Shown: one piece after another, positions 9,985-36,817 of the stretch | Position numbering within the stretch: position 1 is the first letter of the stretch | Layout: the number at the start of each line of letters is the position of its first letter | Origin: Parcubacteria group bacterium Gr01-1014_8 | GTDB taxonomy: Bacteria; Patescibacteriota; Minisyncoccia; Phycocordibacterales; UBA2100 | NCBI GenBank assembly: GCA_007376385.1 | Contig: VMGC01000004.1 | Coordinates: forward strand, 71,207-135,206 | Direction: 5' to 3' | Length of the DNA stretch: 64,000 nucleotides | Translations under genes and position numbers: made by a program | Notes under the pieces: model-generated | What the model saw: the letters and a program-made list of their open reading frames with translations, nothing else | What the model was told of the DNA's origin: nothing | Database searches by the model: none

Positions 9985-10020
9985 GTACCATAATGGTGCC
10001 GGTCGGCACCATTATGGTAC
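9985..10020. repeat. perfect 16-bp-stem palindrome GTACCATAATGGTGCC-GGTC-GGCACCATTATGGTAC (terminator-like or protein-binding site)
   Basis: Read directly; lies 28 nt after the stop of 9595..9957; no U-tract follows. Confidence 0.7.
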
Positions 10021-10097
10021 GCATATAAATCAAAAGGAGACAGAAAATCCCCGAAACAAACACGACAGCTGGTATATCATGGGATATACTTATCGTC

Positions 10098-10700
10098 ATG
10101 TTGGTCGTCGATGTTGAAGCCTCGGGGACAGAGGCGCATACACACTCCATTGTGAGTGTTGGCGCACTGGACCTTTCAAACCCGACCAATCGTTTTTATG
10201 AAGAGTGCCGCGTATGGGACGGCGCGCACATCATGGATGAGGCGCTTGTCGTTAATGGTTTTACGCGAGAACAGATAATCGACCCAAAAAAGTTATCGGA
10301 AGCAGACCTTGTCCATAAATTTCTGCATTGGAGTGAAGATTTGACTAACCGCACTCTAGCTGGACAGAACGTGTCATTCGACAGAGATTTCTTAAAATAT
10401 GCATCGCAAAGGGCGGGGCATACGGATTGGCCATTCGCATATCGCACCATAGACACTCATACGCTCTGCTGGGCTCATATGGTGAATCGGGGATTGAAAC
10501 CGCCAATAGACCCGAAGCACCGGCGCTCTGCGCTCGATTTGGACGCTGTACTGAACTATTGCGGGATTCCGAACGAGCCAGAACCGCATAATGCTCTTAC
10601 GGGAGCGTTGTCGCATGGAGAAGTAATCTCAAGATTGTTGTATGGAAGGAAATTACTGCCAGAATTCACGCAGTTCGATATTCCGTGGAAAAAAGTGTAG
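10098..10700 (+). CDS. DEDDh-family 3'-5' exonuclease (DnaQ/RNase T-like)
   Basis: VVDVEASG (Exo I), HNALTGALSHGEV (Exo III with His). Confidence 0.75.
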   Translation: MLVVDVEASGTEAHTHSIVSVGALDLSNPTNRFYEECRVWDGAHIMDEALVVNGFTREQIIDPKKLSEADLVHKFLHWSEDLTNRTLAGQNVSFDRDFLKYASQRAGHTDWPFAYRTIDTHTLCWAHMVNRGLKPPIDPKHRRSALDLDAVLNYCGIPNEPEPHNALTGALSHGEVISRLLYGRKLLPEFTQFDIPWKKV

Positions 10701-10709
10701 AGGGTTTAT

Positions 10710-11306
10710 ATGACTGATAATGGAAACTTCGGCGGTCCAGATAAAAATCATACACCAGACGATACAAAACGAATGATTGAGGAGGCAGTCCGCAGAGCTC
10801 AAGAGCGACTGCAAAAGAATTTGCAGAGAACGGTGGATCAAGCTGGCGCAGACGTACGGAAGCAAGATGCAGAAGAGAAGGCTCGTACAGAAGAAACGCT
10901 AAAAGCACCCATTGAGGAGCGCGTTGCATATGCTGCAGGTGCCGTCATGAATTATTTTTATTTTACGATGGGTTTTCAACCGGACAAAGCAAAGAGGGCG
11001 CAGGATAGCGTGAGTCTTATTTCTGCAGCGATCACGACGGCACAGCGCGCGTCTGAAGATCTCTTCAAGACAAACCCGCAAGGATACAAAACGCCAGAGG
11101 AGCAAATTCAGCGCGTAACAGAGATGGAGGAGGTTATATCAAATACAGTTCTTAAATGGTACGAACGCGAGCGCGATACTCTTGTCGCAAGCGGTCACAA
11201 GCCGAAGGGGTATGCCAGTATGGAGGGGGCGTGGGCGACATTTGTAGAAGGCTATAGAGATTCCTTTAACACCTACGCGTTCCCGAAAACGAAGCCCTCG
11301 AAGTAG
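10710..11306 (+). CDS. hypothetical protein (charged, likely helical N-terminus)
   Basis: ORF only; no recognisable motif. Confidence 0.4.
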   Translation: MTDNGNFGGPDKNHTPDDTKRMIEEAVRRAQERLQKNLQRTVDQAGADVRKQDAEEKARTEETLKAPIEERVAYAAGAVMNYFYFTMGFQPDKAKRAQDSVSLISAAITTAQRASEDLFKTNPQGYKTPEEQIQRVTEMEEVISNTVLKWYERERDTLVASGHKPKGYASMEGAWATFVEGYRDSFNTYAFPKTKPSK

Positions 11307-11345
11307 CTAGACTAGCCAGAAACTTGTGGCACACTGTGCCTATAT

Positions 11346-12095
11346 ATGTTTGAACTACTCGCAGGCGTTGTTGTACTCATCGTGGTCGCGGTTCTTGTTT
11401 TGCGCCAGGTAAACCAATACGAAGGGGGAGTGATGTTCACCATGGGCAAATTTGTCGGCGTAAAAGCGCCGGGCTGGAGAATTGTCGTCCCGATATTTCA
11501 GCAGATGAAGAAAGTGGACATGCGCGTGAAAGCCGTGGACGTGCCAGAACAAAAGGCGATAACGAAAGACAATATCGCAGTCGGAGTAAATGCAGTCATC
11601 TATTATCGCGTGATAGACGCCGCGAAAGCAATACTCGAAGTCGAGAATTTTATTTATGCGATGAGCCAGCTAGCGCAGACAACGATGCGAAATGCGGTTG
11701 GTGAAGTCGAACTCGACGACCTGCTTTCCCAACGCGACAAAATTTCAGAACGCATAAGCAATGTCGTGGATAGCGCGAGCGAGTTATGGGGCATCAAAGT
11801 TTCGAACGTGGAGTTGAAAGATATTGCGCTCCCGGCCGATATGGAACGAACCATCGCAAAGCAAGCAGAGGCAGAACGTGAGAAGCGCGCCGTTATCATC
11901 AAGGCAGAAGGGGAGGTAATGGCGGCAGAGAATATGGCAAAAGCAGCCACTATGCTGGCTGCGGCCCCTGGGGCATTGCATTTGCGAACGCTCCAGTCCA
12001 TTAACGATATTTCATCTGACCAATCCAACACTGTTGTATTCGCAGTGCCGCTTGAAGTTTTGCGTGCGCTTGATGTGTTGGGCAAGAAATCATAA
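11346..12095 (+). CDS. SPFH/band-7 (stomatin-like) membrane protein
   Basis: N-terminal TM helix followed by a stomatin-like core (KDNIAVGVNAVIYYRVID...LSQRDKISERI...AEAEREKRAVIIKAEGE). Confidence 0.85.
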   Translation: MFELLAGVVVLIVVAVLVLRQVNQYEGGVMFTMGKFVGVKAPGWRIVVPIFQQMKKVDMRVKAVDVPEQKAITKDNIAVGVNAVIYYRVIDAAKAILEVENFIYAMSQLAQTTMRNAVGEVELDDLLSQRDKISERISNVVDSASELWGIKVSNVELKDIALPADMERTIAKQAEAEREKRAVIIKAEGEVMAAENMAKAATMLAAAPGALHLRTLQSINDISSDQSNTVVFAVPLEVLRALDVLGKKS

Positions 12096-12209
12096 GGGGG
12101 ATAGGATCTATCCCAATAATGGCAATGTCGCACAATATATCTTTTGCGACACGTAGCCTGGGCAAACGGCTGCCCTGGGGTCTCCCCCGGGTTCCGGTAT
12201 AATTTCGAG

Positions 12210-12848
12210 GTGACGTATGCCATACGTGTCAGAGACGTTCTTTCAACATCTGAACGTCGGATATTTTCCCGCCTCTCTTCCCCGCGGAAGCTTCAGGATT
12301 TCTTAGAATCTATTCCGATCAATTTTGAGCAAAAAGGAGAAACCAACCACTCCCCCGAAAACGTCCTAAAAACCGGGGAAGCCCATTGTTTTGAAGCGGC
12401 TGTATTTGCCGCCGCGGTACTTGCCTACCATGGCCGGAAGCCTCTCCTCATGGATTTTGCGACTGCATATGACGATGAAGACCATACAGTTGCCCTTTTT
12501 CGAGAAAGCGGCCTCTGGGGCGCGATCAGTAAGACAAACCATGCAGTACTACGCTACCGAGATGCTGTTTATAGGACTCCGCGCGAACTCGCACTGTCTT
12601 ATTTCCACGAATACTATATGTGGGATGGCAGAAAGTCTTTGCGCGCTTTTTCTAAGCCGTTTGACGTATCTCGCTATGCGCCTGAAAAATGGATAACGAC
12701 GGAAACGAGCCTAGACTGGCTCATGGATAGAATTTCCAAGTCTCCCTATTATGCGATGGCGCCGGAAAAAGCTCTTAAAAAGCTTCGACCTGCCTCGCCT
12801 ATCGAACTTCGTGCGCTGAAACTGACAGAATGGAAAAAGAAAGTCTAG
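12210..12848 (+). CDS. transglutaminase-like (cysteine-peptidase fold) protein; GTG start at 12210 preferred over the annotated upstream ATG (12144)
   Basis: GEAHCFEAAVFAAAVLAYHG...DEDHTVALF resembles the Cys/His/Asp core of the transglutaminase-like superfamily; a TATAAT box at 12198-12203 lies inside the longer ORF. Confidence 0.4.
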   Translation: MTYAIRVRDVLSTSERRIFSRLSSPRKLQDFLESIPINFEQKGETNHSPENVLKTGEAHCFEAAVFAAAVLAYHGRKPLLMDFATAYDDEDHTVALFRESGLWGAISKTNHAVLRYRDAVYRTPRELALSYFHEYYMWDGRKSLRAFSKPFDVSRYAPEKWITTETSLDWLMDRISKSPYYAMAPEKALKKLRPASPIELRALKLTEWKKKV

Positions 12849-14110
12849 AGATAATCCAATGGATTCAAATACCCTCCTACAGCTGAAACCGGAATGGTTG
12901 CCTTCCCACATGGAGTATTCGTACCAAGCTGGCGTACCTGCACCGCGTCAGAAGCATATACGGTGAAGTGCAAGTGCGGGCCGGTCGCATATCCCGTATT
13001 GCCAGAGTACCCTATCGCCTGCCCGGTAGAAACGGATTGTCCTTGACTCACATTTATTTGCGACAGGTGCGCATAGAGCGTCGTAAGTCCGTTGCCATGT
13101 TTTATCAGCACCCATTTTCCATATGAGTAACAACCTCTTACAGCGTCAGAATTGCCAGTTCCGATAACGTCTCCCGAAAGAGCGGTTTTTACAGGCGTAC
13201 CGATAGATGCACGAAAATCCACACCGTTGTGGCCTTTTCCGCTGTATGCTCCGCTGCGTGCGAAATCCGTATTTCCGAAGTTTTGCGTGATTGTCACGCT
13301 ATCCAGGGGCCAGCGCAGGATTCCCTTCCCGGATGGTGGCAAAAGCTTCGGGTTCAGTGTGTATTGGAGTTTTGATTCCAGTTCGTTCAGAGATTTCTCG
13401 AACGTTGCTTTGGCTGTACGTTTTGCTTCCAGAATTGCTTGGTAGTTTGCCTCTTGTGATTTTGTTTGCGCGAGAAGCGCGTTCTGCTCGCGTCTCGTCA
13501 CGTCCAAGGATTCCTGTTGCGAGGCCAACGTCTCCTTCTGACTGACAAGTTGCTGACGTTTTTTGTCAGATTCATCACGCGATACAGTCAGTTCTTCCTT
13601 GGCTGCCATCATTGAATCAATATGTTCGTTCACGGCATCCTGGAACGAACGGTTGGTCTCCAAGTCGTCCCACAGAGCGGATATAGAGTCGCTCGTAAGC
13701 ACTTGTTCAATAAGCGTCACGTTTTCTTGTTGATTCATGGACTGAATGGCCTGAGTCAAACCCTCTTCATCCCGATGTATCGCGGTCTCTTTATCAACGA
13801 TAGAACCGTCGAGCCGTTTGATCTCCAACTCTGTCGTAGCAATGTTTGCCTTAGTAACGTTTATCTTTGCGTTTAATTGTTTACGCTGAAGGTCAAGGAT
13901 AGAGACTGTATTTTGCAGTGTTTGTTTCTTCGCACCGACTTCCTGCAGCTGCTTTTCAAAAGCGGCAATTTCTCTGTTGAGTTGTTGAATGTGCGAATTT
14001 TGCGAATTTATCTGGTTCTGCAATTGATCGGCCGTTTGAGCAGACAACACGAAAGGCGTACTGGCAAGTACCGCCAGTGCAAGCATGAAGATACCGCCTC
14101 GTACGTGCAT
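12845..14110 (-). CDS. M23 (LytM) peptidoglycan DD-metalloendopeptidase with N-terminal signal peptide and long coiled coil (EnvC-like)
   Basis: C-terminal GHNGVDFRA...YGKWVLIKHGNGLTTLYAHL...GYSGNTGYATGPHLHFTVY (HxxxD / HxH M23 motifs); Q/E-rich heptad N-terminal half. Confidence 0.85.
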   Translation of the reverse strand: MHVRGGIFMLALAVLASTPFVLSAQTADQLQNQINSQNSHIQQLNREIAAFEKQLQEVGAKKQTLQNTVSILDLQRKQLNAKINVTKANIATTELEIKRLDGSIVDKETAIHRDEEGLTQAIQSMNQQENVTLIEQVLTSDSISALWDDLETNRSFQDAVNEHIDSMMAAKEELTVSRDESDKKRQQLVSQKETLASQQESLDVTRREQNALLAQTKSQEANYQAILEAKRTAKATFEKSLNELESKLQYTLNPKLLPPSGKGILRWPLDSVTITQNFGNTDFARSGAYSGKGHNGVDFRASIGTPVKTALSGDVIGTGNSDAVRGCYSYGKWVLIKHGNGLTTLYAHLSQINVSQGQSVSTGQAIGYSGNTGYATGPHLHFTVYASDAVQVRQLGTNTPCGKATIPVSAVGGYLNPLDYL

Positions 14111-14112
14111 AA

Positions 14113-15444
14113 TTACGAAAGAGAAGCTATGGCTTTGCTGACGCGCCGCACTGTCTCATCCTTACCGAGGATCGAAGCAACAAGAAAAGGGTCCGGTGAC
14201 TGTTCTTTGCCGGTAAGAGAGTATCGAAAAGGCCAAAGAACTGCTCCCCTTCCCTCTTTAGTGGCGTAGGGCCAAAGCGCATCTTTTATCGAGGATACGT
14301 CGAATACATTCAACGCTTCAAGCAGAGTCTTGATATCCCTAAGATGCTCGGCAGTTTTTGCGGCGCTGATCTTCTTCATTGGAATGAGATGTGCCTCTAC
14401 TGAGGGCTGAACGAAGAAATAGTCGTATTCGCCGTTCATTGATTGTTCGTGAATGTCGCTCCATACAGAAATTCGCTCGCGAACAAGCGGAATGATCTTT
14501 TTTGCAATGGATTCGTTCCAGTTCAAATGCGTAAGTGAATTTTCAAGCCACGACAGAGCCTCTGATGCGAACGCACTATCTGATAGTTTCAACATATATT
14601 CGCGATTGAACCATCGCAATTTCTCAACATCGAAGACTGCTCCGCTTTTGTGCAGATCTGATAGTTCGAATTCCTGTACCATCTCATCGAGCGACAATAC
14701 TTCCCTTCCTGACGGCGCAGTCCACCCCAGCGTCGCTAGGTAGTTCAAGAGCGCTTGGGGCAGATATCCCTTTTCCCTGTAATTCTTTACAGCAACGTCG
14801 CCCTTTCGCTTGGATAATTTTGCCCGGTCGAGGCTCAGGTGCAGAGGATAATGGGCGTACATGGGTCTTTTCGCGCCGAGTGCTTCTTGAATGAGAATTT
14901 GACGCGGCGTATTAGATATATGGTCCTCCCCTCTGATAACGTGCGTAATTCCCATAGCCGCATCGTCAACCACGACGGCAAGATGATACAGCGGGTCGTC
15001 CTTGGAGCGAGCGATGACAAAGTCTTTAAGCTCCGTTGTGTCAAACGATATATCGCCGCGTATGACATCAGTAAACGTGATAGTTTTGCCGGAATTCCGC
15101 AATCGAATAACGCTCACCATTGTACCGGGGTCCTTCTTACTCTCTTCGTCCGATACGTATGCTTTATCTTCATCAATAAGTTTTTCTATTTCAGCGCGAT
15201 ACACGTCGATCCTCTCGGATTGTCTATGAAATTCGTCCCATGAAAGCCCAAGCCACGTGAGCGAATCTTTGATGTCATCCTCGAATTCTCGGGTACTTCG
15301 TTCTTTGTCCGTATCCTCTGAGCGAAAAATGATGGTGCCATTGTTTTTTCGCGCAAACAAATAATTCACGATGGCCATACGCGCAGTACCTACGTGGCAG
15401 AACCCGGTCGGGCTCGGCGGAAATCTAACCCGCACGGAATTCAT
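14113..15444 (-). CDS. gltX: glutamyl-tRNA synthetase
   Basis: VRVRFPPSPTGFCHVGTARMAIVNYLFAR (HIGH region), KLSKRKG (KMSKS). Confidence 0.92.
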   Translation of the reverse strand: MNSVRVRFPPSPTGFCHVGTARMAIVNYLFARKNNGTIIFRSEDTDKERSTREFEDDIKDSLTWLGLSWDEFHRQSERIDVYRAEIEKLIDEDKAYVSDEESKKDPGTMVSVIRLRNSGKTITFTDVIRGDISFDTTELKDFVIARSKDDPLYHLAVVVDDAAMGITHVIRGEDHISNTPRQILIQEALGAKRPMYAHYPLHLSLDRAKLSKRKGDVAVKNYREKGYLPQALLNYLATLGWTAPSGREVLSLDEMVQEFELSDLHKSGAVFDVEKLRWFNREYMLKLSDSAFASEALSWLENSLTHLNWNESIAKKIIPLVRERISVWSDIHEQSMNGEYDYFFVQPSVEAHLIPMKKISAAKTAEHLRDIKTLLEALNVFDVSSIKDALWPYATKEGRGAVLWPFRYSLTGKEQSPDPFLVASILGKDETVRRVSKAIASLS

Positions 15445-15547
15445 ACCCCGTGAGAGAGATTACGCGAGCTTATGCAACAAACTCTCGGGATATTGAATTG
15501 AATGAATAGTATTGTCATATCTATTATTTTTTCTCTCATGGGGTCAT
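15443..15547. repeat. MITE/REP-like inverted-repeat unit (ATACCCCGTGAGAGAGA ... TTCTCTCATGGGGTCAT) filling the murG-gltX spacer
   Basis: Inverted arms read directly; left arm overlaps the gltX ATG, right arm overlaps the murG stop; same ACCCCRTGAGA core as units at 30712, 47342 and 48245. Confidence 0.7.
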
Positions 15548-16683
15548 AGCGGCTCGTGGGAGAGCGCGGTCTCGAGAAGAATGGTCGCAAGCTTCCCTCC
15601 CGCATCGGGTCGTGCAAATTGTGCGGCCGCGGCGGACATCTTCGCCCGAGTCATCTCATCGTTCATTACTCTGTCTATTTCTGCAGCAAGGAGATGCGGC
15701 GTCAAATTCTTTTGATCAACGACAACAGATGCTCCCGTTCTTGCATATGAGAACGCATTCTCCGTCTGATCATTTGAGATCTCCTTTGGGAGAGGAATAA
15801 TGATGCTCGGCAATTTCCACGATGCTATTTCAAAAATGGTGCCGGACCCCGCTCGGGCAACAACGAGCGATGCAATTCCCGCTGTCATTCGCAGAGCAAG
15901 CGTGTTTAGCAGTCCGAATGTACGGTAGCGTTCTTTGTACGGCGAATCTTTGAGGATGACGTTAGCTATCCCATTCAATTCTTCAAGATTAGATTTTCCG
16001 GTTTGGTGAACGACATTATATTTAGAGAGCAAGTCGGGGAGAGCGTTGAGTACGGCCTCATTTATTGCCTGTGCTCCCTGCGAGCCTCCCATGATAAAGA
16101 CTGTCGCTCGCGGCTGAAGTTTGAGAAATTCATATCCGCCCTCTTTCGTCGGATTCTCTATCTCTTTTCGTATCGGGTGTCCAATGAGAGCAATGCGCGA
16201 CTTCACTTTCGATGAATATTGCGCAACAGCTTCTGGATGAGCAACGGCGACCCATTTGGCGAATTTCGATGACCACAACGAGACTCGTCCGGGCTTTGCG
16301 TCTGCGTCGTATATGACAACCGGAATGTTTAAGGTGCGCGCTGCGTAGAGAGTCGGAAACGCCGCGTAACCGCCGGTAGAAAAGACGACATCAGGATAGA
16401 TTGAAAATAATTGGAAAATTGATTTGATTATGCCGACGAACGTCTTGAAAACGTCAAACACGTTAAGAATGCTCGGATATGTGCGCAACTTTCCTGCAGG
16501 CGAAGGCCGATAGGAAATATCATGCTCGACAAGCGCTGCGTCATCAAACGCAGGCGGACCAATGTAGAAAAATTCAGGCGAAACAAGCCGCCGCGCATCC
16601 ACGAGATCCTCAATGTGCTCCGCAACTGCAATGAGGGGATAAAAATGTCCGCCAGAGCCCCCTCCCGTGAAGACGATGCGCAT
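15544..16683 (-). CDS. murG: UDP-GlcNAc:lipid I GlcNAc transferase
   Basis: MRIVFTGGGSGGHFYPLIAV N-terminal G-loop; full-length collinearity with MurG. Confidence 0.92.
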   Translation of the reverse strand: MRIVFTGGGSGGHFYPLIAVAEHIEDLVDARRLVSPEFFYIGPPAFDDAALVEHDISYRPSPAGKLRTYPSILNVFDVFKTFVGIIKSIFQLFSIYPDVVFSTGGYAAFPTLYAARTLNIPVVIYDADAKPGRVSLWSSKFAKWVAVAHPEAVAQYSSKVKSRIALIGHPIRKEIENPTKEGGYEFLKLQPRATVFIMGGSQGAQAINEAVLNALPDLLSKYNVVHQTGKSNLEELNGIANVILKDSPYKERYRTFGLLNTLALRMTAGIASLVVARAGSGTIFEIASWKLPSIIIPLPKEISNDQTENAFSYARTGASVVVDQKNLTPHLLAAEIDRVMNDEMTRAKMSAAAAQFARPDAGGKLATILLETALSHEPL

Positions 16684-16722
16684 AGTGGCTTAAAGTTTAC
16701 CACGTTCCTCTCTCCTGAGGAC

Positions 16723-17817
16723 TTATTTCTTTGGCCTATATCTGGATATACCGAGCAAAATGCCGGCACTGCCCAGAGAGACAAGCATGGCAGAACCACC
16801 CTGACTTATAAACGTCAACGGAATCCCGGTTAACGGGGCAAGACCAAGCATTGAACCAATATTTATAAATGCCTCGCTGACGAAATATGTTGAAATGCCG
16901 ACGGCAGCAAGCGCTCCGAAATAATCAGGCGCACGAGCAGCTACCGCAAAACCGCGCAGGGCGAGTAGTAAAAATACTCCTATGATGGCGCTTCCGCCGA
17001 TAAAACCGATCTCCTCGGCCGCAACAGCAAATATTGAATCCCCCATCGGTTCAGGCAGATACGTAAATTTCTGAACGCTCTGGCCAAATCCGCGTCCAAA
17101 GACGCCGCCCGAACCTATCGCAATGAGGGACTGTTTTATTTGATAGCCTTCCGCGAGAGGATTTTCAGCGGGATTAATGAATGTCGTAACCCTATCGAGC
17201 ATGTACGGTCTTAGGTATGCAAGGCCCCCGAGCATGATGACGCCGATTGCGCCGATAATCGCGATATCACGTAATCGTGCGCCTGCCGCTACATATACTG
17301 CAAGTGCAGCGATACAGATGACGCCGAGCGTGCCTATATCGGGCTGTATGACAAGCAATAGAGTCGGCGGCGCAAGTATCGCCGCAAACGCGGCAAGACC
17401 TCGCCATGAACCGCTCTCCCCTCTCAATGTCGAGAAGTAGGAAGCAACCATAAGAATAGTCGCAATTTTAAGCGCTTCCGAAGGTTGAAACGTGAAGCCG
17501 AGTATCTCAATCCACCGTCTCCCGCCGCCGTGCATAAAGCCGACGTGCGGCACGAAAACGAGTGCCGTCAGCAACAGCGCACATCCATACAGATATGGCG
17601 CCCATACCCGCCATCTGCGATATTCAATGAACGTGGTAGCCGCGAGCGCTGCGAGACCAAGACTCACCCCAAGAACTAAGTGGTTAAAAACGACTGACGA
17701 AATGTGCGATGCTCCGCGTGCGAGAAGACCGAACGCCGCTGATATGAATACGCCAGCGCCGCCGACTACGAGTACAGCAATAATACTAGCGAGAGGTTTG
17801 TCGATATGTGCTTTCAT
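16723..17817 (-). CDS. ftsW: SEDS-family cell-division/elongation protein FtsW/RodA (start taken at internal Met 17817 abutting the upstream stop; ORF track extends to 18012)
   Basis: 10-TM profile; FTYLPEPMGDSIFAVAAEEIGFIGG conserved SEDS loop. Confidence 0.88.
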   Translation of the reverse strand: MKAHIDKPLASIIAVLVVGGAGVFISAAFGLLARGASHISSVVFNHLVLGVSLGLAALAATTFIEYRRWRVWAPYLYGCALLLTALVFVPHVGFMHGGGRRWIEILGFTFQPSEALKIATILMVASYFSTLRGESGSWRGLAAFAAILAPPTLLLVIQPDIGTLGVICIAALAVYVAAGARLRDIAIIGAIGVIMLGGLAYLRPYMLDRVTTFINPAENPLAEGYQIKQSLIAIGSGGVFGRGFGQSVQKFTYLPEPMGDSIFAVAAEEIGFIGGSAIIGVFLLLALRGFAVAARAPDYFGALAAVGISTYFVSEAFINIGSMLGLAPLTGIPLTFISQGGSAMLVSLGSAGILLGISRYRPKK

Positions 17818-17818
17818 G

Positions 17819-19327
17819 TCATCCGAGTGATTTTCGATACTTTGCCGCTGCAAGAGCATCGTCAGCGAATTCACTATTACCTTTCCAGAGATGGTAGATG
17901 TTCGATGTGTGGTTTCGATGCAGGAAATGCCGCTGCTTCTCCGGGCCAAGATCTTTTTCCACATACTCTTCAATGAGGGAAATATCTTCCGCGAGTACAT
18001 TAAATCGAGCATCTCCGCCCATAAGCAGTTCTAAGTTTTCCTTATTCAAAAACTTACCCGCGTGGACGAGGTCCTTTTTAAGATTTACATACAACCGCTC
18101 TAATAAGTTCATGATGCCCATCTCACGAGCGATCTTTAGCGCTCTTCCCGTAGCTATCAGCTCTGGCGGAATACCAAGGGAATAGAATGCGCCGGTGAAT
18201 TTAATGGCTCTCGGCAGTTGAATCCCGCCAACACCGCGTGAATATCCGAAGAGTCCGATGTGCTGCGCCCTCTCACGATGACTCGGCAGTGCAGACGCTA
18301 CATCGTTTATGACATCCGCAAGCGGCGTTATTGTGTCAGTAAAAAAACGAGCTGCCCGAGCATTGAACAGAGAGATTTTTTCGCTGTCCTTCTCGTTCAC
18401 TTTTTCATACCTGTCGATATTCTTAGGGATTTCTTTGTTGAGTTTTCGTATGGCTTTTTTCACGTCATCCAGCGGGTAATCCGAGCGAAAGGCTGATTGG
18501 ATCGTCAACGACTGGGCACCTGTATACTGCTCTATGGTTTCGTCAACATATTCCGGGTTTATCCCTCCTCTGAACGGTAAGCTGCCGCCGCCAACCCACG
18601 GATACATGCGTATACCTCGTTTTTCTCCTAGCTCATGTGAATCTGCAATAAGTTTCTTGACTGCGAGCACGGTCGGCAAAAGCCCCGCGTTCATTGCCGG
18701 ATCGGAGCGCGCTATAAAGACGCGAAAGTACTCTGGGACAAGAGCATGAGTGTCTCGCAGATAATCGAGATAATCACTCATGATGCGGGGAGCCTCTTCC
18801 ATGGTCTCAACGCTTTCAAATAGCGGTATAACGTCGAGAAATTTGAATTCGCTTGGCATATCAAAAATACTTTCTGCAGCTTCCGCTATTCTATGGAATC
18901 GCTCCTGCATCTGTTTGAGTTGCTCTGCAGAAGTCGTCATGGGCAAGATGAGTTCAAATATCGGAGGAATATGGAAACCGTATTGCCTCGCGGCATGTTC
19001 GGCCGCAAATACGTTGATAAGGCTCCGCGGAAGCCGGTGTGTTTTCTCGACCCAAACATTTGGAATGCGAAACGTGAGAAATATGTTCTTGCCAATTTGA
19101 TGTTTCTTGAAATAGTCAAAATAGTTTTGGTACAGCCGGTCAATAACCGCCTCATCAACCAACTTTCCTTCCCAATCCCACATGTACTCGTGCACTCCGA
19201 GCTCGGAAAAACATCGGTAGCATTCATCAATTTCCTCACTTGACGCAACAAACCGCTTCCCCGTAAAGGGTGACGGGCATGCGTTATCAGGATGCTGGGT
19301 GGCCATCGTGACGGGGATAGTGCGCAT
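17819..19327 (-). CDS. archaeal-type phosphoenolpyruvate carboxylase (PepcA/atPEPC family)
   Basis: N-terminal IPVTMATQHPDN (TQHPDN signature of atPEPC), ARSDPAMNAG and VGGGSLPFRGG (counterparts of the PEPC GYSDSxKDxG and GRGGxxGRGG motifs); ~500 aa. Confidence 0.72.
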   Translation of the reverse strand: MRTIPVTMATQHPDNACPSPFTGKRFVASSEEIDECYRCFSELGVHEYMWDWEGKLVDEAVIDRLYQNYFDYFKKHQIGKNIFLTFRIPNVWVEKTHRLPRSLINVFAAEHAARQYGFHIPPIFELILPMTTSAEQLKQMQERFHRIAEAAESIFDMPSEFKFLDVIPLFESVETMEEAPRIMSDYLDYLRDTHALVPEYFRVFIARSDPAMNAGLLPTVLAVKKLIADSHELGEKRGIRMYPWVGGGSLPFRGGINPEYVDETIEQYTGAQSLTIQSAFRSDYPLDDVKKAIRKLNKEIPKNIDRYEKVNEKDSEKISLFNARAARFFTDTITPLADVINDVASALPSHRERAQHIGLFGYSRGVGGIQLPRAIKFTGAFYSLGIPPELIATGRALKIAREMGIMNLLERLYVNLKKDLVHAGKFLNKENLELLMGGDARFNVLAEDISLIEEYVEKDLGPEKQRHFLHRNHTSNIYHLWKGNSEFADDALAAAKYRKSLG

Positions 19328-19336
19328 ACAGATCGT

Positions 19337-20398
19337 TTATAGTGCTGATAGCGCCAAAATGACCCCAAGGAACGCAAATACGATGGAGAGTACCCAGTAA
19401 CGCATGGCAACCTTATAGCCCGGCCAACCGATGGCTTCAAAGTGATGATGGAGAGGCGCGACGCGGAATATCTTCTTTCCGAGAAAGTATTTCGAGGTAA
19501 CTTGGAGCACATTTGACCCCACAGTAATAACAAGAAGCCCTCCTATAATGGGAAGAACGGCGACGCCGACTCCTTCGCCCAAGCTATCTGTCATGAATAC
19601 GACAACAGCGAGCGCGAGTGTGAGCGCCATTGTTCCCGTATCGCTCATATAAAAACGCGCAGGCGGGATGTTGAACCACAAAAATGCGAGAAGTCCCCCG
19701 ACCACGGACGCCGTAAATGCTGCGAGGTCTATCTGATTTTGCGCAAAAGCGATGACCGAATACGCCGCAAACACAGACATAAAAACACCGCCCGAGAGTC
19801 CGTCAATGCCATCAATGACCCCCGAGGCAAACAGAGCGAGGGAAAGCAGAACGAAAAAAGGAATAACAAGCCAGCCGATCTCGAGTGGTGAAGAGAAAGG
19901 AATATTTATCGTGTGAACATCAAGTTTTGCAAAAAACCATACGCCTATCATGGTCGACATGATGAGTACGACAACAAGTCGCACATTGAGAGGCAGCCCA
20001 TCGCCAGACGGGCGTATGACAAGCACATCGTCGATGAATCCGGCGATACCGCCTATAACGAGCGCCGCGAGAGGTATCCACGTTTGATTTCGACTTAAGA
20101 AATTGAGACTCGTTGTCACCGAGTCTTGAAAAAGACCTGCGAGACCAGCAAGACCAAGTATGGTAATAACGACGCTCCCCCACACGACGAGCCCGCCCAT
20201 GCGCGGCGCTCTCTGTTCGTGGGCTTCGTGAAGCCTATTGAACTCAGATGCGACATTGCCATCAAGACCATTTTTCCCGGGTTTTTTTTTCCACATCCTG
20301 TGCTTGTAGAGATAGTGTGTCAGGATAGGTGTAATTGCCATCCCAACAACGAAGGTGGCGGCAGCCGGAACAAGAATGCGTACCGTATCGGACAACAT
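19337..20398 (-). CDS. mraY: phospho-N-acetylmuramoyl-pentapeptide transferase
   Basis: GFIDDVLVIRPS (DDxxD), PLHHHFEAIGW, 10-TM profile. Confidence 0.92.
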   Translation of the reverse strand: MLSDTVRILVPAAATFVVGMAITPILTHYLYKHRMWKKKPGKNGLDGNVASEFNRLHEAHEQRAPRMGGLVVWGSVVITILGLAGLAGLFQDSVTTSLNFLSRNQTWIPLAALVIGGIAGFIDDVLVIRPSGDGLPLNVRLVVVLIMSTMIGVWFFAKLDVHTINIPFSSPLEIGWLVIPFFVLLSLALFASGVIDGIDGLSGGVFMSVFAAYSVIAFAQNQIDLAAFTASVVGGLLAFLWFNIPPARFYMSDTGTMALTLALAVVVFMTDSLGEGVGVAVLPIIGGLLVITVGSNVLQVTSKYFLGKKIFRVAPLHHHFEAIGWPGYKVAMRYWVLSIVFAFLGVILALSAL

Positions 20399-20418
20399 AT
20401 TTTCATTGTACCTCGCTG

Positions 20419-21393
20419 CTACAAGCTTTGCGCGATGGCTTTCGTGGCCCGGTCAACGAGACTGCGCATATCCTTAAATCGACCATCGTAGGATGAGCCA
20501 AGCACCACAACAACAACGGGGTGACCCGGTCCCACCTCAAACACGACCACAACATTACCGCCTGCCAGATCCGTGTACCCTGTCTTGCCGAGCACCAGCC
20601 CAGGAATATCCGGCAGAGCGTCATTCGTGTTAATAGTGGCGCTCGGACTGCCATTGAGCGGCCCAAGATCAGCATTCGGGTCGCTTGTCCCGGAAAATAG
20701 GTCCTGATCCACGGCCACAGCATGAGCAAAAAGTGTTGCGACATCTCGTGCTGAACCCATAGCGCCTGGCTGTGTCGTACCGATGTCCAGTCCGCTTGGA
20801 TTAGCAAAGTATGTTTTTGCGAGGCCAAGTTCCTGAGCAAGTTTGTTCATCCTCCATACGGCGGTATTAGTATCCGGAGCGTCTGGATATTTTGCACGAA
20901 GCAGCGGCTCAGCGGCCTCCGCCAGGGCCTCTGCGCCCGCGTTCGATGAGCGTATAAGTGTAAAATCCACGAGGTCGCGAACTCTCCAGCTATCGCCCGT
21001 GCCGAGTCCGCCGCCCTCTCCTTTTTCCACTGCGTCTCGCGATATCGTAACCGTATCAAATGGCTGCAAGACTTCGGAAACTACAAGCATGAGGGGCACT
21101 TTCGTCAAAGACGCAAGCGGTAGCTGTGTCTCAGCATTTTTTTCGAAAAGCACGGCACGTTCATGCATGTCGTATACAAGAGCCGCCTTGGCCTCGAGCG
21201 AAACATCGCGAAATAGAGCGTGTGGCATCGCAACAGCTGCAGTTTGGTCAATACGAGTCTCTGAGGATCCAATTGACTGCATACCAACCAATATCACAAT
21301 GGTAGCCGTCAAAAAAAGAGATATGCTGGCAAGCCATTTCTCACGAGCTATTTCCATCGTTTTGCGAATGAGCGTTTTCATTGAAAATTTCAT
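20419..21393 (-). CDS. serine-type D-Ala-D-Ala carboxypeptidase (S11 family, PBP5/DacA-like)
   Basis: ASLTK (SxxK), SSN (SxN), KTGYT (KTG) motifs in the correct order and spacing. Confidence 0.8.
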   Translation of the reverse strand: MKFSMKTLIRKTMEIAREKWLASISLFLTATIVILVGMQSIGSSETRIDQTAAVAMPHALFRDVSLEAKAALVYDMHERAVLFEKNAETQLPLASLTKVPLMLVVSEVLQPFDTVTISRDAVEKGEGGGLGTGDSWRVRDLVDFTLIRSSNAGAEALAEAAEPLLRAKYPDAPDTNTAVWRMNKLAQELGLAKTYFANPSGLDIGTTQPGAMGSARDVATLFAHAVAVDQDLFSGTSDPNADLGPLNGSPSATINTNDALPDIPGLVLGKTGYTDLAGGNVVVVFEVGPGHPVVVVVLGSSYDGRFKDMRSLVDRATKAIAQSL

Positions 21394-21967
21394 TCTTGCT
21401 CTTAAAAGCCTTTAGTTCGCGAGCGATTGTATCATAGTCGGGTAATTTTTCCGTGTTTGCTACACCGAGATGGGCAAGAAGCTCGACTGTCGGCCGATAC
21501 AGGTATTCTCTGCCGTCCTCGGGATTTCCTGCTCGTTCGGCAAGGCCCCGCGAAAGCAGCGTTCGGAGTGTTGACGAAGAATTCACGCCTCGAATGTAAT
21601 CAATGTCGGCTCGGGTGGACGGACCGTCGTATAAAAGGATCGTCAATACTTCGAGCCCCGCATCGCCTATTTCTCGTTCCTGCTCTTTCAGCTGGGCAGC
21701 AGCTACGGTGTCACGTATGCCGGCAGAAACGGCCAGCGCGACTTCTTTGTCAGTCCTGACGACAGTGAGCGGCGTATTCTTGAGCGTCTGTTCAAGTACG
21801 TTCAATGCACCAAGAAGCTCAGCCTGATCGCAGTCTAAGAATTGTGCCAATTTCTTCAGCGTCAGGGAATCGCCTTCTGCAAACAATAGTGCGTGAATTT
21901 TAGAAGCAAGGTCCATATGTTCAATATTTTGGCGCGCCAAGAGCTTCGGTTTCGAGAAGAATATCAC
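21341..21967 (-). CDS. scpB: segregation and condensation protein B
   Basis: IHALLFAEGDSLTLKKLAQ...winged-helix repeats typical of ScpB; operon with scpA. Confidence 0.85.
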   Translation of the reverse strand: MIFFSKPKLLARQNIEHMDLASKIHALLFAEGDSLTLKKLAQFLDCDQAELLGALNVLEQTLKNTPLTVVRTDKEVALAVSAGIRDTVAAAQLKEQEREIGDAGLEVLTILLYDGPSTRADIDYIRGVNSSSTLRTLLSRGLAERAGNPEDGREYLYRPTVELLAHLGVANTEKLPDYDTIARELKAFKSKNEIFNENAHSQNDGNSS

Positions 21968-22697
21968 TAAAAAGCTTCTCCTGCGTTGCGCTAATGCTGC
22001 CGCTGCGTATTAGTTCCAAGACCGCGAGAAAATGGACTATCATTTCGTGCCTTCCGGATGCCTTGGTTAATTCGCTCCACTTTGTGCGGATAGAGGATGC
22101 CAAACGGCGTCGCAGAGTCCCGATGACCTCTTCGAGTTGGAGAATGGGGACGACAGTCGCTTCTGCCAGGCGTTCGGGTTTTGGAAGAGTATTTACCAGT
22201 CTTTTTGCGGCGCCGAGCAGCATGGCAAGCGTCGTTTCTCCAGGATTGAAGGCCACCGCACGTCCTCCCGTATGCTCCGGCGTAGGCTGTCGTTTTGCGA
22301 ATTGCAGAGGCTTTTTCCTCCATATCTGCCGCAATGACTTTGACGACTTTCGTACCAACGCATACGCGGCAAGTCTCCTTTCCAATTCTCCGATGCTTTG
22401 CGATTCCTCTTCGGACAAATCGACCGACGGAAGCAATGTTCTGGACTTGATAAGCAGCAGAGTGGATGCAATGAGTATGAACTGCGCGGTCTCCGCGAGA
22501 GGCAATTGCGGCAAACTCTCAACGTATGCGAGGTATGCGTCGGTTACTTCCGCAAGAGAAACTTCGGATATCGAAAGCTTTCTCTCTTCTATCAAGCTAA
22601 GAAGAGCATCAAGCGGTCCAGAATATGTATGTGTAGCTACGGCAAAGGCGCTCATGCCCGCCACTCGAAATGGCATCGCAAGAGAGAACATTGCCAT
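21921..22697 (-). CDS. scpA: segregation and condensation protein A (kleisin)
   Basis: GPLDALLSLIEERKLSISEVSLAEVTDAYLAYV N-terminal ScpA signature; overlaps scpB start. Confidence 0.85.
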   Translation of the reverse strand: MAMFSLAMPFRVAGMSAFAVATHTYSGPLDALLSLIEERKLSISEVSLAEVTDAYLAYVESLPQLPLAETAQFILIASTLLLIKSRTLLPSVDLSEEESQSIGELERRLAAYALVRKSSKSLRQIWRKKPLQFAKRQPTPEHTGGRAVAFNPGETTLAMLLGAAKRLVNTLPKPERLAEATVVPILQLEEVIGTLRRRLASSIRTKWSELTKASGRHEMIVHFLAVLELIRSGSISATQEKLFSDILLETEALGAPKY

Positions 22698-22786
22698 TTA
22701 TTACGTCCTGCTGATAATTGCTCGATCATATATTTGTTCTGTATTTTATATCTGCTAAATTCCAAATGCCATTTCGCATGCTCGGA

Positions 22787-24181
22787 TTACACTTTCTTCT
22801 TTTTTATCTCAATGCCCAGTTCATTCAGCTGTTTGCCCTGAAGCGGCTTAGGTGCGTTCATAACTGCGGTTTGGCCGCCCCTCGTCATCGGGAATGCCTG
22901 CACCTCGCGAAGATAGCTCTCCCCCGTCAGGTTCATCAGAACGCGTTCAATGCCGATTGCGATGCCTCCGTGCGGCGGGGCGCCATAGGTAAAGGCTTTC
23001 AACATGTGCCCGATGCTATCTTCGATGCGTTCATCGCTGTAGCCCATTGTCTTATACACAGCACGTAATATGCCTGGTCTATGGGCGCGAATAGAACCCC
23101 CAGCGGTCTCGAAGCCGTTACAAACAAGATCATATTGCGCTGTCAAAATGTGTTCGATATTGCGGCCGTGCAACAGGTCATCCGCATGCTCTGGAAGCGG
23201 CGCAGAAAATGGATTGTGAGTGAACGTCCAACCGCCCTCAGGCGTTTTCTCAAAGAACGGGAATTTGTGGACCCACGCATACGCAAGAACCCCGGTTTTC
23301 TTCTCATCGTCTGTTCGAAGGTCGAATTTATCAGCGCCGAATTTTTCCATTGCTTCAGCATAGGTAAATCGCGGAAATGGTTTTTCACGAACTTTAAACC
23401 CGAGCTTTTCCACCGTCTCAGTCATCATGTCCTCCACGATGGCCATCACATCTTCTTGTTCGACGAATGACATCTCTATATCGATCTGCGAGTGTTCAAA
23501 GCCCCGGTCAGCCCGCAGGTCTTCATCGCGGACGGCGCGCGCAATCTGAAAATATCGCTCCATGCCTGCAACCATCAGAAGCTGCTTGTACTGCTGTGGG
23601 GACTGCGGAAGAGCATAAAATGAGCCTGGATGGAGCCGCGATGGAACGACAAAATCCCTCGAACCTTCCGGTGTTGACTCTGTGAGGAGAGGTGTTTCAA
23701 TTTCGGTGAATTTCTTTGCAAATAAATACTCTCTGCACGCTCTGACAAATTCGCTCCGCAATCGAATATTCTTTTGCATTCGTTCACTTCGAAGATCTAA
23801 ATAGCGGTACTGCAATCGAGTTTTCTCATCGACCATTGAGGTATCTTCAGTAATTTCAAATGGCGGCACATCGGATGCACCGAGAACATCGAGTGATCCA
23901 ACTGATACTTCTATATCGCCGTTCTCTACCCCGACGGTTATATTTTTTCCAGGTCGTTTGTTAACAGTGCCCATGATGGAGATAGCCGACTCGCGTGTCG
24001 TCGTCTTAGCGACTTCAAGAGCAGGACTTTTGGTCAAGACAACGGTTTGGACCGATCCGGTCATGTCTCGCACGTCAAAAAAGACCATTTTACCTTGGTC
24101 TCTCCGTACTGATATCCAGCCGCGTATGCAAACGCTTTCCCCGACATGATCTTTAAGATCTTTAATGTAGGTACGTTCCAT
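22787..24181 (-). CDS. aspS: aspartyl-tRNA synthetase, compact form lacking the large bacterial insertion domain (start at MERTYIKDL)
   Basis: N-terminal OB fold, QSPQQYKQLLMVAGMERYFQIARAVRDEDLRADR (class II motif 2 region), GFETAGGSIRAH motif 3. Confidence 0.9.
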   Translation of the reverse strand: MERTYIKDLKDHVGESVCIRGWISVRRDQGKMVFFDVRDMTGSVQTVVLTKSPALEVAKTTTRESAISIMGTVNKRPGKNITVGVENGDIEVSVGSLDVLGASDVPPFEITEDTSMVDEKTRLQYRYLDLRSERMQKNIRLRSEFVRACREYLFAKKFTEIETPLLTESTPEGSRDFVVPSRLHPGSFYALPQSPQQYKQLLMVAGMERYFQIARAVRDEDLRADRGFEHSQIDIEMSFVEQEDVMAIVEDMMTETVEKLGFKVREKPFPRFTYAEAMEKFGADKFDLRTDDEKKTGVLAYAWVHKFPFFEKTPEGGWTFTHNPFSAPLPEHADDLLHGRNIEHILTAQYDLVCNGFETAGGSIRAHRPGILRAVYKTMGYSDERIEDSIGHMLKAFTYGAPPHGGIAIGIERVLMNLTGESYLREVQAFPMTRGGQTAVMNAPKPLQGKQLNELGIEIKKKKV

Positions 24182-24185
24182 AGTG

Positions 24186-25121
24186 CTAGATCGAAACTCC
24201 AATCTTTTCACGAACGTCATACATCTTCTTGGATGCATATTCTCGCGCGTTCGCGCTCCCCTTTTCAAGTATTGTTGCTACATCTGAATCGCTGATCGAT
24301 GCATATTTCTCTCTCATCGGTTTTACAACGGCATCAATGTCCTCGATAAGCGCCTCTTTCAGGACCTTGTATTTTCCTTTATGTGCGCTATAGAGCGACT
24401 CAAGTTCTGCCTCAGCGCGAAAATGCCGGTGTACTTGGTACACATTCTCAGGTCTTTCTCCGGATGAGTCAGTGACAATGGACATCACCGCTTTTACGAG
24501 AACATCCTTTGGCTCAAAGAGAGGTATCGTATTTCCATAGCTCTTGCTCATTTTCTTGCCATCCGTGCCTGGAACGATAGCGACAGAATCCAATATCTTT
24601 GCTTGCGGTTCTTTAAATGTTTGGCCGAACGCAATGTTGAATTTCGACGCCGCTTCACGCGCGTACTCGAGATGCTGCCGCTGGTCAGCGCCCACTGGTA
24701 CAACATCGGTATCGTACAGCAAAATATCTGCGGCCATAAGCATCGGATAGTTAAAAAGTCCCACGTTCGCTTCGAGTCCTTTCGCAAGTTTGTCCTTGTA
24801 CGCATGCGACAGTTCGAGGAAAGGAACAGTGACAAGACATTCAAATATCCACGCGAGTTCTGTGTGCTCCTGGACACGCGACTGCTGGAATATGACCGCT
24901 TTATTGGGGTCAATACCGGCTGCAACGTAACTCTTGACGATATCGCGTATGTTGCTCCGAAGTTCATCCTTCTGGCGCAGAGTAGTAAGCGCGTGATAAT
25001 CAGCAACCATCAAAAAGCTTTCGAAGCTGAAATAGAGTTCGGAAAACGGCTTTAATGCGCCCAAGTAATTCCCAATATGCAATACACCAGAAGGCTGGAG
25101 TCCCGTCAAAAGTCGCTGCAC
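24186..25121 (-). CDS. trpS: tryptophanyl-tRNA synthetase
   Basis: TGLQPSGVLHIGNYLGA (HIGH region), KKMSKSYGN (KMSKS). Confidence 0.92.
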   Translation of the reverse strand: MQRLLTGLQPSGVLHIGNYLGALKPFSELYFSFESFLMVADYHALTTLRQKDELRSNIRDIVKSYVAAGIDPNKAVIFQQSRVQEHTELAWIFECLVTVPFLELSHAYKDKLAKGLEANVGLFNYPMLMAADILLYDTDVVPVGADQRQHLEYAREAASKFNIAFGQTFKEPQAKILDSVAIVPGTDGKKMSKSYGNTIPLFEPKDVLVKAVMSIVTDSSGERPENVYQVHRHFRAEAELESLYSAHKGKYKVLKEALIEDIDAVVKPMREKYASISDSDVATILEKGSANAREYASKKMYDVREKIGVSI

Positions 25122-30902: not shown

Positions 30903-32759
30903 TCAATCTTTTTTTGGTTCTTGGCCATCCGCAGGAGGCGTCTCGCCGCCTTGGGCGGGACCCTTCGACATGGCTTCGCCGATGGCACTCATCGCGGCAG
31001 AAAGCGCATCTACTGCATTTTTTATGGCGACCGCATCATTCCCCGCTCTGGCCGTTTTTAGCGCATCTATCTTCTCCTGAACATTTTTCTTCACATCAGA
31101 ACCGATCTTCTCTCCATGCTCGCGCAGAGCTTTCTCCGCGGCGTACACAAGTTGGTCAGCGGCGTTCTGTGCCTCCACCAATTCCTTCTTTTTCTTGTCA
31201 GACTCGGCGTTGGCATCAGCATCCGAGCGCATTTTTTCAACGTCCGCATCAGTTAATCCGGAACGCGCCTCTATCCGTATTGATTGCTCCTTACCAGACG
31301 TTTTTTCCTTCGCTTTGACAGAGAGAATGCCGTTTGCATCTATATCGAAACTGACCTCGATTTGCGGCATGCCTCGTGGCGACGGCGGAATACCGTCCAG
31401 GTTGAACCGTCCCAAAGACTTATTGTCTGCAGCCATCGGTCTCTCGCCTTGTACGACATGTATCTCGACGGACGGTTGGTTGTCCGCCGCCGTCGAAAAC
31501 ACCTGCGATTTTGAAGTAGGAATAGTCGTGTTTCTTTCAATTAATTTTGTTGCAACCCCTCCGAGTGTCTCTATGCCGAAAGAAAGAGGTATGACATCGA
31601 GAAGAAGCACATCCTTTACGTCGCCCTGCAAAATTCCTCCCTGGATAGCCGCACCGATGGCAACGACCTCGTCCGGGTTTACTCCCATGTGCGGCTTTTT
31701 TCCGAAAAAATCCTCAACTGCCTTTTGAAGCGCCGGCATTCGTGTTTGTCCTCCCACGAGAATAACTTCATTGATATCTCCTATTTTGAACGGCGAGGCT
31801 TCCATTGCGCGTTTTGTTATAGCAATAGCTCTATCAACAAATTCGCGAGAAAGGTCCTCAAGCTTCCCGCGCGTCATCTTAATAAGGAGATGCCGGGGGC
31901 CGGACGAATCCGACGTGATGAACGGAATATTGATCTCAGTTTCTAGCGCGCTTGAGAGTTCTATTTTGGCTTTCTCTGCACCTTCATCAAGTCGTTGCCG
32001 TGCCAAGGGATCATTACGAACATCAATGCCTGACTCTTTTTTGAATTCATCAGCTATCCAATTCATGATATTCTGGTCCAGATCTTTTCCTCCAAGATGG
32101 GCATCGCCATCGGTTGAACGGACTTCTATCACGTCGTCACCCACTTCCAGAACGGAGATGTCGAACGTGCCTCCGCCAAAGTCGAACACAACGATTTTTT
32201 CGTTCTTTTTTTTGTTAAAACCATATGCTAAGGCAGCTGCAGTCGGTTCATTGATGATGCGCTTCACATCAAGTCCCGCTATCTTGCCCGCATCACGCGT
32301 TGCCTGACGCTGTGAATCGTTGAAATATGCGGGAACGGTAATGACCGCTTCCGTGATCGTCTCGCCCAGCTTCGCTTCAGCGTCCTGTTTTAACTTTTGC
32401 AGGATCATGGCAGAGATCTCCTCTGGCCGGTACCACTTAGAACCCATGTGCACCTCTATGCCGCCATTCGAGCTTTTCTGCATCTCAAAAGGCACCGCTT
32501 TCCTATCCTTTTCTACTGCAGCTTCGTCGAACGAGTGTCCGATGAAGCGCTTTATTTGATAAATTGTGTTTTTCGGATTCGTAACCGCTTGTCTTTTTGC
32601 AAGAAGTCCGACAAGCCGCTCCCCTGTCTTTGAGGTGGCGACAACGGACGGCGTCGTCCGAGCGCCCTCAGCATTTTCTATGATGTCAGGCTCGCCTCCT
32701 TTCACTATTGCAATCGCTGAATTCGTCGTTCCAAGATCTATGCCGAGTATTTTTCCCAT
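30903..32759 (-). CDS. dnaK: chaperone DnaK (Hsp70)
   Basis: [17 protein letters not shown], full-length Hsp70 collinearity. Confidence 0.97.
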
Positions 32760-35763: not shown

Positions 35764-35766
35764 ATT

Positions 35767-36735: not shown

Positions 36736-36817
36736 AAAAAAATGGCGCGTTAGGCGAAAGGAGGCTTAAAATCTGGATAAAAAAGCGATTAATAAAAGAT
36801 ACGAAAAACGCGAAACA

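Follow-up and report, generated by a model that had tools for sequence, protein, structure and literature searches.

An archaeal-type phosphoenolpyruvate carboxylase gene in the mraY-ftsW junction of a Kaiserbacteria-like genome, with a probable origin in another class of the Candidate Phyla Radiation

The window analysed here, a stretch of 64,000 nucleotides from Parcubacteria group bacterium Gr01-1014_8, carries a gene for an archaeal-type phosphoenolpyruvate (PEP) carboxylase (atPEPC; PEPC below for the gene and its product) inside a conserved cell-wall block, between mraY and ftsW. The host is a small, Kaiserbacteria-like groundwater bacterium of the Candidate Phyla Radiation (CPR). We consider it likely that a small Kaiserbacteria-like subclade gained this gene laterally a long time ago, that the gene is expressed by read-through of the surrounding operon, and that its product supplies oxaloacetate and aspartate. 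PEPC has already been documented in CPR genomes, the identical protein is listed in public databases as phosphoenolpyruvate carboxylase of the metagenome-assembled genome (MAG) Parcubacteria group bacterium Gr01-1014_8, and our results add no enzyme, pathway or mechanism to those known. The novelty lies solely in the context, namely a transfer between CPR classes that became fixed in an essential, syntenic operon and is patchily distributed in one small subclade. Such a case offers a clean and datable instance of gene flow between CPR classes, in which an enzyme of central metabolism was absorbed into an essential and highly syntenic operon, and it shows that reduced genomes can add metabolic capability without adding regulatory DNA.

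The carboxylase and its relatives

By every sequence criterion tested, the open reading frame (ORF) encodes a genuine, full-length atPEPC. The original prediction had named an archaeal-type enzyme of about 500 amino acids from its N-terminus and two motifs, and had proposed a profile search as a check. The translated ORF (17819..19327) does begin with MRTIPVTMATQHPDN and carries ARSDPAMNAG at residues 206-215 and GGGSLPFRGG at residues 246-255, and the search bore out the assignment: Pfam PF14010 (PEPcase_2) matched residues 4-502 over profile positions 1-493 of 493 (E 9.8e-129, 430.5 bits against a cutoff of 25), and the NCBIfam equivalog TIGR02751 (PEPCase_arch) matched over its full length (profile 1-506 of 506; 462 bits against a curated cutoff of 146). 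The model of the bacterial PEPC, NF000584, gave a local match of 21 bits, its cutoff being 815. H12, R87, E171, D209, R253, R373 and the C-terminal G502 show no variation across an alignment of 20 homologs, and they fall in the motifs QHPDN, FRIPN, PLFE, ARSD, LPFRG and LPRAI and at the C-terminal glycine. We take the His of QHPDN, the Arg of RIPN, the Glu of PLFE, the Asp of ARSD, the Arg of LPFRGG and the C-terminal Gly to be catalytic or metal-binding residues.

The only relative with a solved structure is the atPEPC of Clostridium perfringens (PDB 3ODM; E 3e-52, in two aligned stretches). Both proteins are of the 500-residue class, and the motifs QHPDN, RIPN, ARSD.AM, GSLPFRG and PRAI.FTGA.Y.LG.PPEL align between them; the homology is clear but distant, and the protein of the window belongs to a CPR-specific branch. 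Its 502 residues agree with the size of the small atPEPC subunit (~55-60 kDa, without regulatory regions), whereas bacterial and plant PEPCs are larger, at 90-110 kDa (PMC8100219). Enzymes of this type convert PEP and bicarbonate irreversibly to oxaloacetate and phosphate by a mechanism that has been summarized, and they are inhibited by aspartate in competition with PEP; the enzymes of C. perfringens and of archaea are known to be homotetramers with PEP carboxylase activity and to be inhibited in this way (PMC8100219).

The relatives of the protein conflict with those of its host. We placed 84 PEPCs in a neighbour-joining tree. There, the four proteins encoded at this site, in the window and in three related genomes, are monophyletic (100% bootstrap) and sister to a group of three (L084, L003 and L007; 99.5%), and they are nested (100%) in a clade to which several independent submitters have given the titles Peribacteria, Peregrinibacteria, Gracilibacteria or Altimarinota. 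The nearest relatives beyond the four are Peregrinibacteria, Peribacteria and Gracilibacteria proteins at 57-63% identity, and those of Falkow-, Buchanan- and Jacksonbacteria (Parcubacteria-type), Wirthbacteria and Nitrospirota are ~45-47% identical, other bacteria being at about 45%. A search of 5.8 billion proteins gave nothing between 76% identity, the lowest among the four, and 63%, the highest among all others. The host genes, for their part, are Kaiserbacteria-like. This conflict supports the view that PEPC was acquired horizontally and inserted into the conserved cell-wall block of a CPR genome. The PEPC of Candidatus Peribacter riflensis (PMC4736985) belongs to the Peregrinibacteria/Peribacteria group that is closest to the four, and it has in common with the PEPC of the window a presumed role in oxaloacetate formation in CPR cells that lack a TCA cycle; in that group, however, the gene lies beside an aminotransferase gene or unrelated genes and never in the cell-wall block, and the host of the window is of a different CPR class. 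An in-frame UGA, the marker of Gracilibacteria with genetic code 25, was absent from the neighbouring PEPCs, except for one in-frame stop in L037.

Horizontal acquisition had been part of the original prediction, which tied it to the archaeal type of the enzyme, and here only the transfer itself held. Archaea gave the family its first described members, and PEPCase_arch is the name of the best-matching NCBIfam model, but we found no archaeal name among the source-named members of the best 120 protein clusters (51-100% identity) and none among the best 80 genome loci (44-83%), all of which are bacterial and mostly from CPR. Direct acquisition from an archaeon is thus extremely unlikely, and CPR-only nearest relatives together with the lack of archaeal matches point to a donor that was another CPR bacterium with a PEPC of the Peregrinibacteria/Peribacteria/Gracilibacteria type.

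Placement of PEPC at the mraY-ftsW junction was seen in four genomes only: that of the window, L002, L083 and L082, whose PEPCs are 83%, 77% and 76% identical to that of the window (the L083 contig retains just the last 54 codons of mraY upstream of PEPC). Among the best 80 genome loci of PEPC relatives, L002 alone has the order mraY-PEPC-ftsW, and for protein matches at 63% identity and below PEPC never lies at this junction. Only 4 PEPC clusters exceed 63% identity, compared to at least 120 database clusters of MraY relatives at 67-83%, most of the organism-named ones being Candidatus Kaiserbacteria or Paceibacterota. Furthermore, PEPC is absent from L085, L086, L156, L169 and L170, which neighbour-joining trees place in the host subclade, and from two further contigs, all of them from close relatives (MraY 73-79% identical to that of the window). 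The insertion is therefore patchy within the closest host relatives, with 4 of about 12 genomes carrying the gene, and the unusual context claimed originally is real. One could suspect that a Peregrinibacteria gene was joined to a Kaiserbacteria contig by faulty assembly or binning, since the source is a MAG and the gene's relatives are in another CPR class; given that four assemblies, made independently in different projects, have the arrangement in common, with PEPC and host genes all clearly diverged, and that spacers are 1-9 bp with unbroken composition, we regard the chance of such a chimera as negligible.

The transfer is old and the gene fully ameliorated. PEPC carries no compositional signature of transfer relative to the rest of the window: its GC content is 0.478 compared to a window mean of 0.498 (z -1.2), with a GC3 z of -0.4 and a codon-usage log-likelihood z of +0.85 (rank 39 of 48 from the worst). 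Among the four orthologs, all of 502 codons, synonymous differences are saturated (pS 0.80-0.86) and nonsynonymous differences are few (pN 0.10-0.17). Saturation and native composition and codon usage together argue for an old event, and low pN and equal ORF length for purifying selection on a working gene.

Native-like composition was one half of what, according to the original prediction, would make the gene ancestral; the other half, an arrangement widespread in the lineage, was not found, the arrangement being confined to the four genomes. We nevertheless weighed vertical descent, in which PEPC would be ancestral at this site in the Kaiserbacteria lineage and lost from nearly all of its members. 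Composition and codon usage agree with it, and some losses are plausible because presence and absence interleave in the closest subclade. Yet there are 83 related loci without PEPC, 78 of them with a compact junction, which would call for dozens of precise deletions; the four PEPCs are nested in the Peribacteria/Peregrinibacteria-type clade and not beside other Parcubacteria PEPCs; and the gap in identity below 76% is hard to reconcile with this history. We consider vertical descent very unlikely.

The mraY-ftsW junction and murD

The textbook division and cell wall (dcw) cluster of Escherichia coli and Bacillus subtilis has murD between mraY and ftsW, and the PEPC gene was originally described as sitting where murD normally sits. 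To this extent the description did not survive comparison with related genomes. We examined 83 informative related loci, made up of seven contigs found via MraY homologs (L085, L086, L087, L169, L170 and two more; MraY 71-79% identical to that of the window) and 76 of the 80 loci from a metagenome scan (MraY 54-76% identity). In 78 of the 83, mraY is followed directly by ftsW at a distance of at most ~170 bp (7 of 7 contigs, with spacers of 1-86 bp and without murD, and 71 of 76 metagenome loci), and in none of the 83 does PEPC occupy the junction. The seven contigs, among them the complete 859-kb genome CP066682.1, share the order trpS-aspS-scpA-scpB-S11-mraY-ftsW-murG-gltX-M23 as far as each extends; the longer metagenome loci have the full block order as well, and the shorter ones match it over the part covered.

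At the five exceptional junctions we found an amino-acid-kinase gene, a Tsp45I restriction-modification pair, a gene for a 1321-aa surface protein, an unknown ORF of 237 aa, and one unclear case. None of the ORFs found at these junctions is as large as a Mur ligase would be, and those scanned with Pfam, five in all, are not Mur ligases. We conclude that adjacency of mraY and ftsW without murD is the ancestral state of the lineage and that PEPC is an addition to it.

The absence of murD from the window, also claimed originally, was confirmed in that none of 29 ORFs scanned with Pfam has a Mur-ligase domain. These cover all but six of the 31 ORFs of at least 300 aa called in the window; five of the six have precomputed Pfam matches to other families, and the sixth (55145-56491) resembles DnaB by eye. 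Likewise, no Mur ligase was found in the 8 kb that adjoin the window at its start, a stretch of polyamine genes, and literature searches on murD in Kaiserbacteria and on this MAG returned nothing relevant. Taken with the textbook gene order, this absence could suggest that PEPC displaced or replaced murD, the genome having lost or relocated it through the insertion. However, since 78 of the 83 loci have the direct arrangement without murD, murD is not the normal occupant of the site in this lineage, and since relatives that lack PEPC, including the complete genome, have mraY immediately before ftsW, at spacings of 1-100 bp, the absence of murD at the site is older than the insertion. We therefore hold replacement or displacement of murD to be scarcely credible.

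The comparison corrects an easy misreading, in that mraY followed by ftsW without murD is the norm in these lineages and not a sign of disruption. Set beside the canonical dcw cluster (mraZ-rsmH-ftsL-ftsI-murE-murF-mraY-murD-ftsW-murG-murC), the lineage block retains the relative order of mraY, ftsW and murG on a single strand, and, like the canonical cluster, it is flanked by cell-wall enzymes, here an S11 carboxypeptidase and an M23 peptidase. It is otherwise a fragment, with mraY abutting ftsW and with no mur ligases, ftsI, ftsQ, ftsA or ftsZ nearby, and unlike the canonical cluster it has scpAB and tRNA synthetase genes around it.

Expression, role and competing readings

We propose that a PEPC gene from a donor of the Peregrinibacteria/Peribacteria/Gracilibacteria type landed in the short mraY-ftsW spacer, where transcripts of the housekeeping operon mraY-ftsW-murG would run through it and coupling to the genes on either side would drive its translation. 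Co-transcription with mraY, ftsW and murG is the most likely mode of expression because a promoter would not fit into spacers of 9 bp and 1 bp (gene calls of the window's locus, L001, place PEPC at 10001-11509 and FtsW at 11511-12605) and because in L082 the stop codon of mraY and the start codon of PEPC share the sequence ATGA, PEPC being followed by a 4-bp spacer. The position in a cell-wall operon would be that of a permissive, constitutively expressed landing site and would not reflect a cell-wall function.

In the host, PEPC probably carboxylates PEP to oxaloacetate, which transamination would turn into aspartate; the organism probably has no tricarboxylic acid (TCA) cycle. A path from PEP through oxaloacetate to aspartate is the best-supported role, as suggested by adjoining aminotransferases, by a report on Peribacteria and by the inhibition of atPEPC by aspartate. 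A class-I/II aminotransferase gene lies at most three ORFs from PEPC, and mostly next to it, in 37 of the best 80 genome loci (PRK06855-type in 28 loci, AspC/TyrB-type in 9), and complete Peribacteria genomes are reported to encode PEPC and aspartate aminotransferase with few other uses for oxaloacetate (PMC4736985). At the window start (4-393) and on L168 (1-8476) we also observed an arginase-family gene, two genes of the Orn/DAP/Arg decarboxylase family and a saccharopine-dehydrogenase-like gene (PF03435/PF16653). This cluster resembles a polyamine pathway of the carboxy(nor)spermidine type which, through its use of aspartate semialdehyde, could be a sink for aspartate derived from PEPC.

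Several observations weigh against this account of origin, expression and role. The trees are neighbour-joining trees on corrected p-distances, not maximum-likelihood trees, and contain no archaeal or Firmicutes references; the donor taxonomy derives from submitters' titles, of which at least that of L002 (Saccharibacteria) is evidently wrong, given its Kaiserbacteria-type block. One simple gain does not fit the host tree, in which genomes with and without PEPC interleave. In trees of MraY, FtsW and MurG, L001 groups with L082, both with PEPC (100%); L002, with PEPC, groups with L085 and L170, both without (L002 and L085 at 98-100% before L170 was added); and L083, with PEPC, groups with L156 and L086, both without (L083 and L086 at 100% before L156 was added). 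L169, without PEPC, falls within the subclade, its placement differing between two trees; bootstrap support for the subclade is 91% with six genomes and FtsW alone and 98-99% in five-taxon versions. Moreover, the PEPC tree joins L001 and L002 (97.8%), whereas the host genes join L001 and L082. A scan of the block for promoter and terminator consensus sequences gave counts no higher than in shuffled sequence. Finally, genes for aspartate aminotransferase, malate dehydrogenase and aspartate-family pathways are all missing from the 64-kb window, whose sole aminotransferase is of class III.

The tree conflict could reflect either several precise losses or the exchange of a cassette among relatives. 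Carried further, the latter leads to a view in which the mraY-ftsW junction is an exchangeable cassette site, PEPC, with a strongly conserved essential gene on each side, being repeatedly gained and lost among related lineages by homologous recombination and retained where aspartate and diaminopimelate for peptidoglycan have to be self-made. We judge this broader view unlikely; if true, a symbiotic bacterium that lacks a TCA cycle would carry, fixed within its cell-wall operon, a metabolic accessory on which selection can act. When MraY and FtsW were compared in sliding windows between genomes with PEPC and relatives without it, identity showed no recombination switch near the junction, and the L083 flanks resemble those of its PEPC-less sister L086 right up to it. 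No recent presence/absence pair with exact indel boundaries was found, the closest pairs being ~23% diverged in nucleotide sequence. In the window, no mobility genes, repeats or tRNA gene flank PEPC, the two short spacers leaving no room for them.

A second possibility is that PEPC was recruited to the cell-wall operon for its function, feeding oxaloacetate through aspartate and aspartate semialdehyde into meso-diaminopimelate for the stem peptide and also drawing on the same PEP pool as MurA. Its tight and probably translationally coupled packing in mraY-ftsW-murG, with purifying selection in four genomes, is what such recruitment would lead one to expect. So are a dapB-dapA-aminotransferase-lysA run just upstream of the block in the related complete Kaiserbacteria genome L087, the amino-acid-kinase gene at the mraY-ftsW junction of the lineage member L136, and a class-I/II aminotransferase gene between ftsW and murG in a close relative. 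On the other hand, junctions of the block also take unrelated cargo (the Tsp45I pair, toxin-antitoxin genes, GIY-YIG, a cyclopropane-synthase-like methyltransferase, the surface protein), so that the location looks permissive and not functional; moreover, most close relatives have no PEPC, PEPCs of the donor lineages have no cell-wall neighbours, and dap genes are absent from the 64-kb window. Recruitment is an unlikely explanation for these reasons, and we favour old lateral gain into a permissive, transcribed site.

Junctions of this otherwise rigid block frequently carry lineage-specific cargo. The ftsW-murG spacer is occupied in L088, L089 (a Phd/YefM antitoxin), L094, L098, L101, L115, L163, L164, L167 and L083 (a CMAS-like methyltransferase, in common with L156), and the mraY-ftsW spacer in L127, L136 (the amino-acid kinase), L107 (the Tsp45I pair) and L140 (the 1321-aa surface protein, which is Ig-like). 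The aminotransferase between ftsW and murG, of 535 aa and class I/II, is encoded on the opposite strand of a contig from JGI 3300043331. In L002, an element resembling a miniature inverted-repeat transposable element, with imperfect terminal inverted repeats (CCCGCACACTAAATTTG ... CAAAATTAGTGTACGGG), occupies three successive spacers: S11-mraY (1528-1664), mraY-PEPC (2727-2869) and PEPC-ftsW (4379-4686). The 308-bp copy encodes an 88-aa GIY-YIG protein (PF01541, E 1e-17). Repeats and GIY-YIG also occur at the S11-mraY spacer and hence are not specific to PEPC, and the longer spacers of L002 contain no donor remnants. A 23-nt match to the end of this repeat is found just after mraY in L160 (890-912), which lacks PEPC. 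The 85-bp mraY-ftsW spacer of the PEPC-less sister L085 contains a perfect 22-bp inverted repeat (CGCCGCAGGGTATTTTGACGG...CCGTCAAAATACCCTGCGGCG; 11081-11138) and has no similarity to PEPC or to the L002 spacers.

Gene order around PEPC and other features of the window

The order murG-ftsW-PEPC-mraY-dacA-like on a single strand, as originally described, is upheld by Pfam and NCBIfam matches and by the coordinates (Table 1). The SEDS neighbour scored 299 bits with TIGR02614 (ftsW) and 279 bits with the rodA model, both below their own cutoffs.

Table 1. Features of the PEPC locus (window coordinates)
Feature	Position	Strand	Remarks
Conserved block trpS-aspS-scpA-scpB-S11-mraY-(PEPC)-ftsW-murG-gltX-M23	12845..25121	(-)	order common to relatives
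murG	15544..16683	(-)	PF03033 and PF04101; best NCBIfam TIGR01133
SEDS protein (ftsW/rodA family), downstream neighbour	16723..17817	(-)	PF01098, E 2.4e-84
Spacer from PEPC stop (TGA) to ftsW start (ATG), downstream insertion junction	17818..17818	(-)	1 bp
Archaeal-type phosphoenolpyruvate carboxylase (atPEPC)	17819..19327	(-)	502 aa, intact; PF14010, TIGR02751 and 3ODM matches
Spacer from mraY stop (TAA) to PEPC start (ATG), upstream insertion junction	19328..19336	(-)	9 bp
mraY (phospho-MurNAc-pentapeptide transferase), upstream neighbour	19337..20398	(-)	PF00953, E 8e-23; best NCBIfam TIGR00445; 70-83% identical to MraY proteins, several with a Kaiserbacteria label
S11 D-Ala-D-Ala carboxypeptidase (dacA-like)	20419..21393	(-)	PF00768, E 1.2e-27

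Elsewhere in the window, five ORFs of 390-489 aa (35581-36753, 38753-40132, 40175-41362, 52415-53884 and 60839-62011) have no Pfam match at E <= 0.001 and represent the "dark" protein content typical of CPR; at least that at 38753-40132 has a proline-rich, low-complexity N-terminus. An ORF of 240 aa with an IS200-like Y1 transposase domain (32844-33566, minus strand; PF01797, E 2.7e-11) lies immediately downstream of dnaK (30903-32759), in a region of genes for chaperones and ribosomal proteins. In addition, a class-I aminoacyl-tRNA synthetase of 985 aa, probably LeuRS, is encoded at 1918-4875 on the plus strand, and weak Ser_hydrolase and Abhydrolase_5 Pfam matches between the halves of its catalytic domain may mark an inserted domain.

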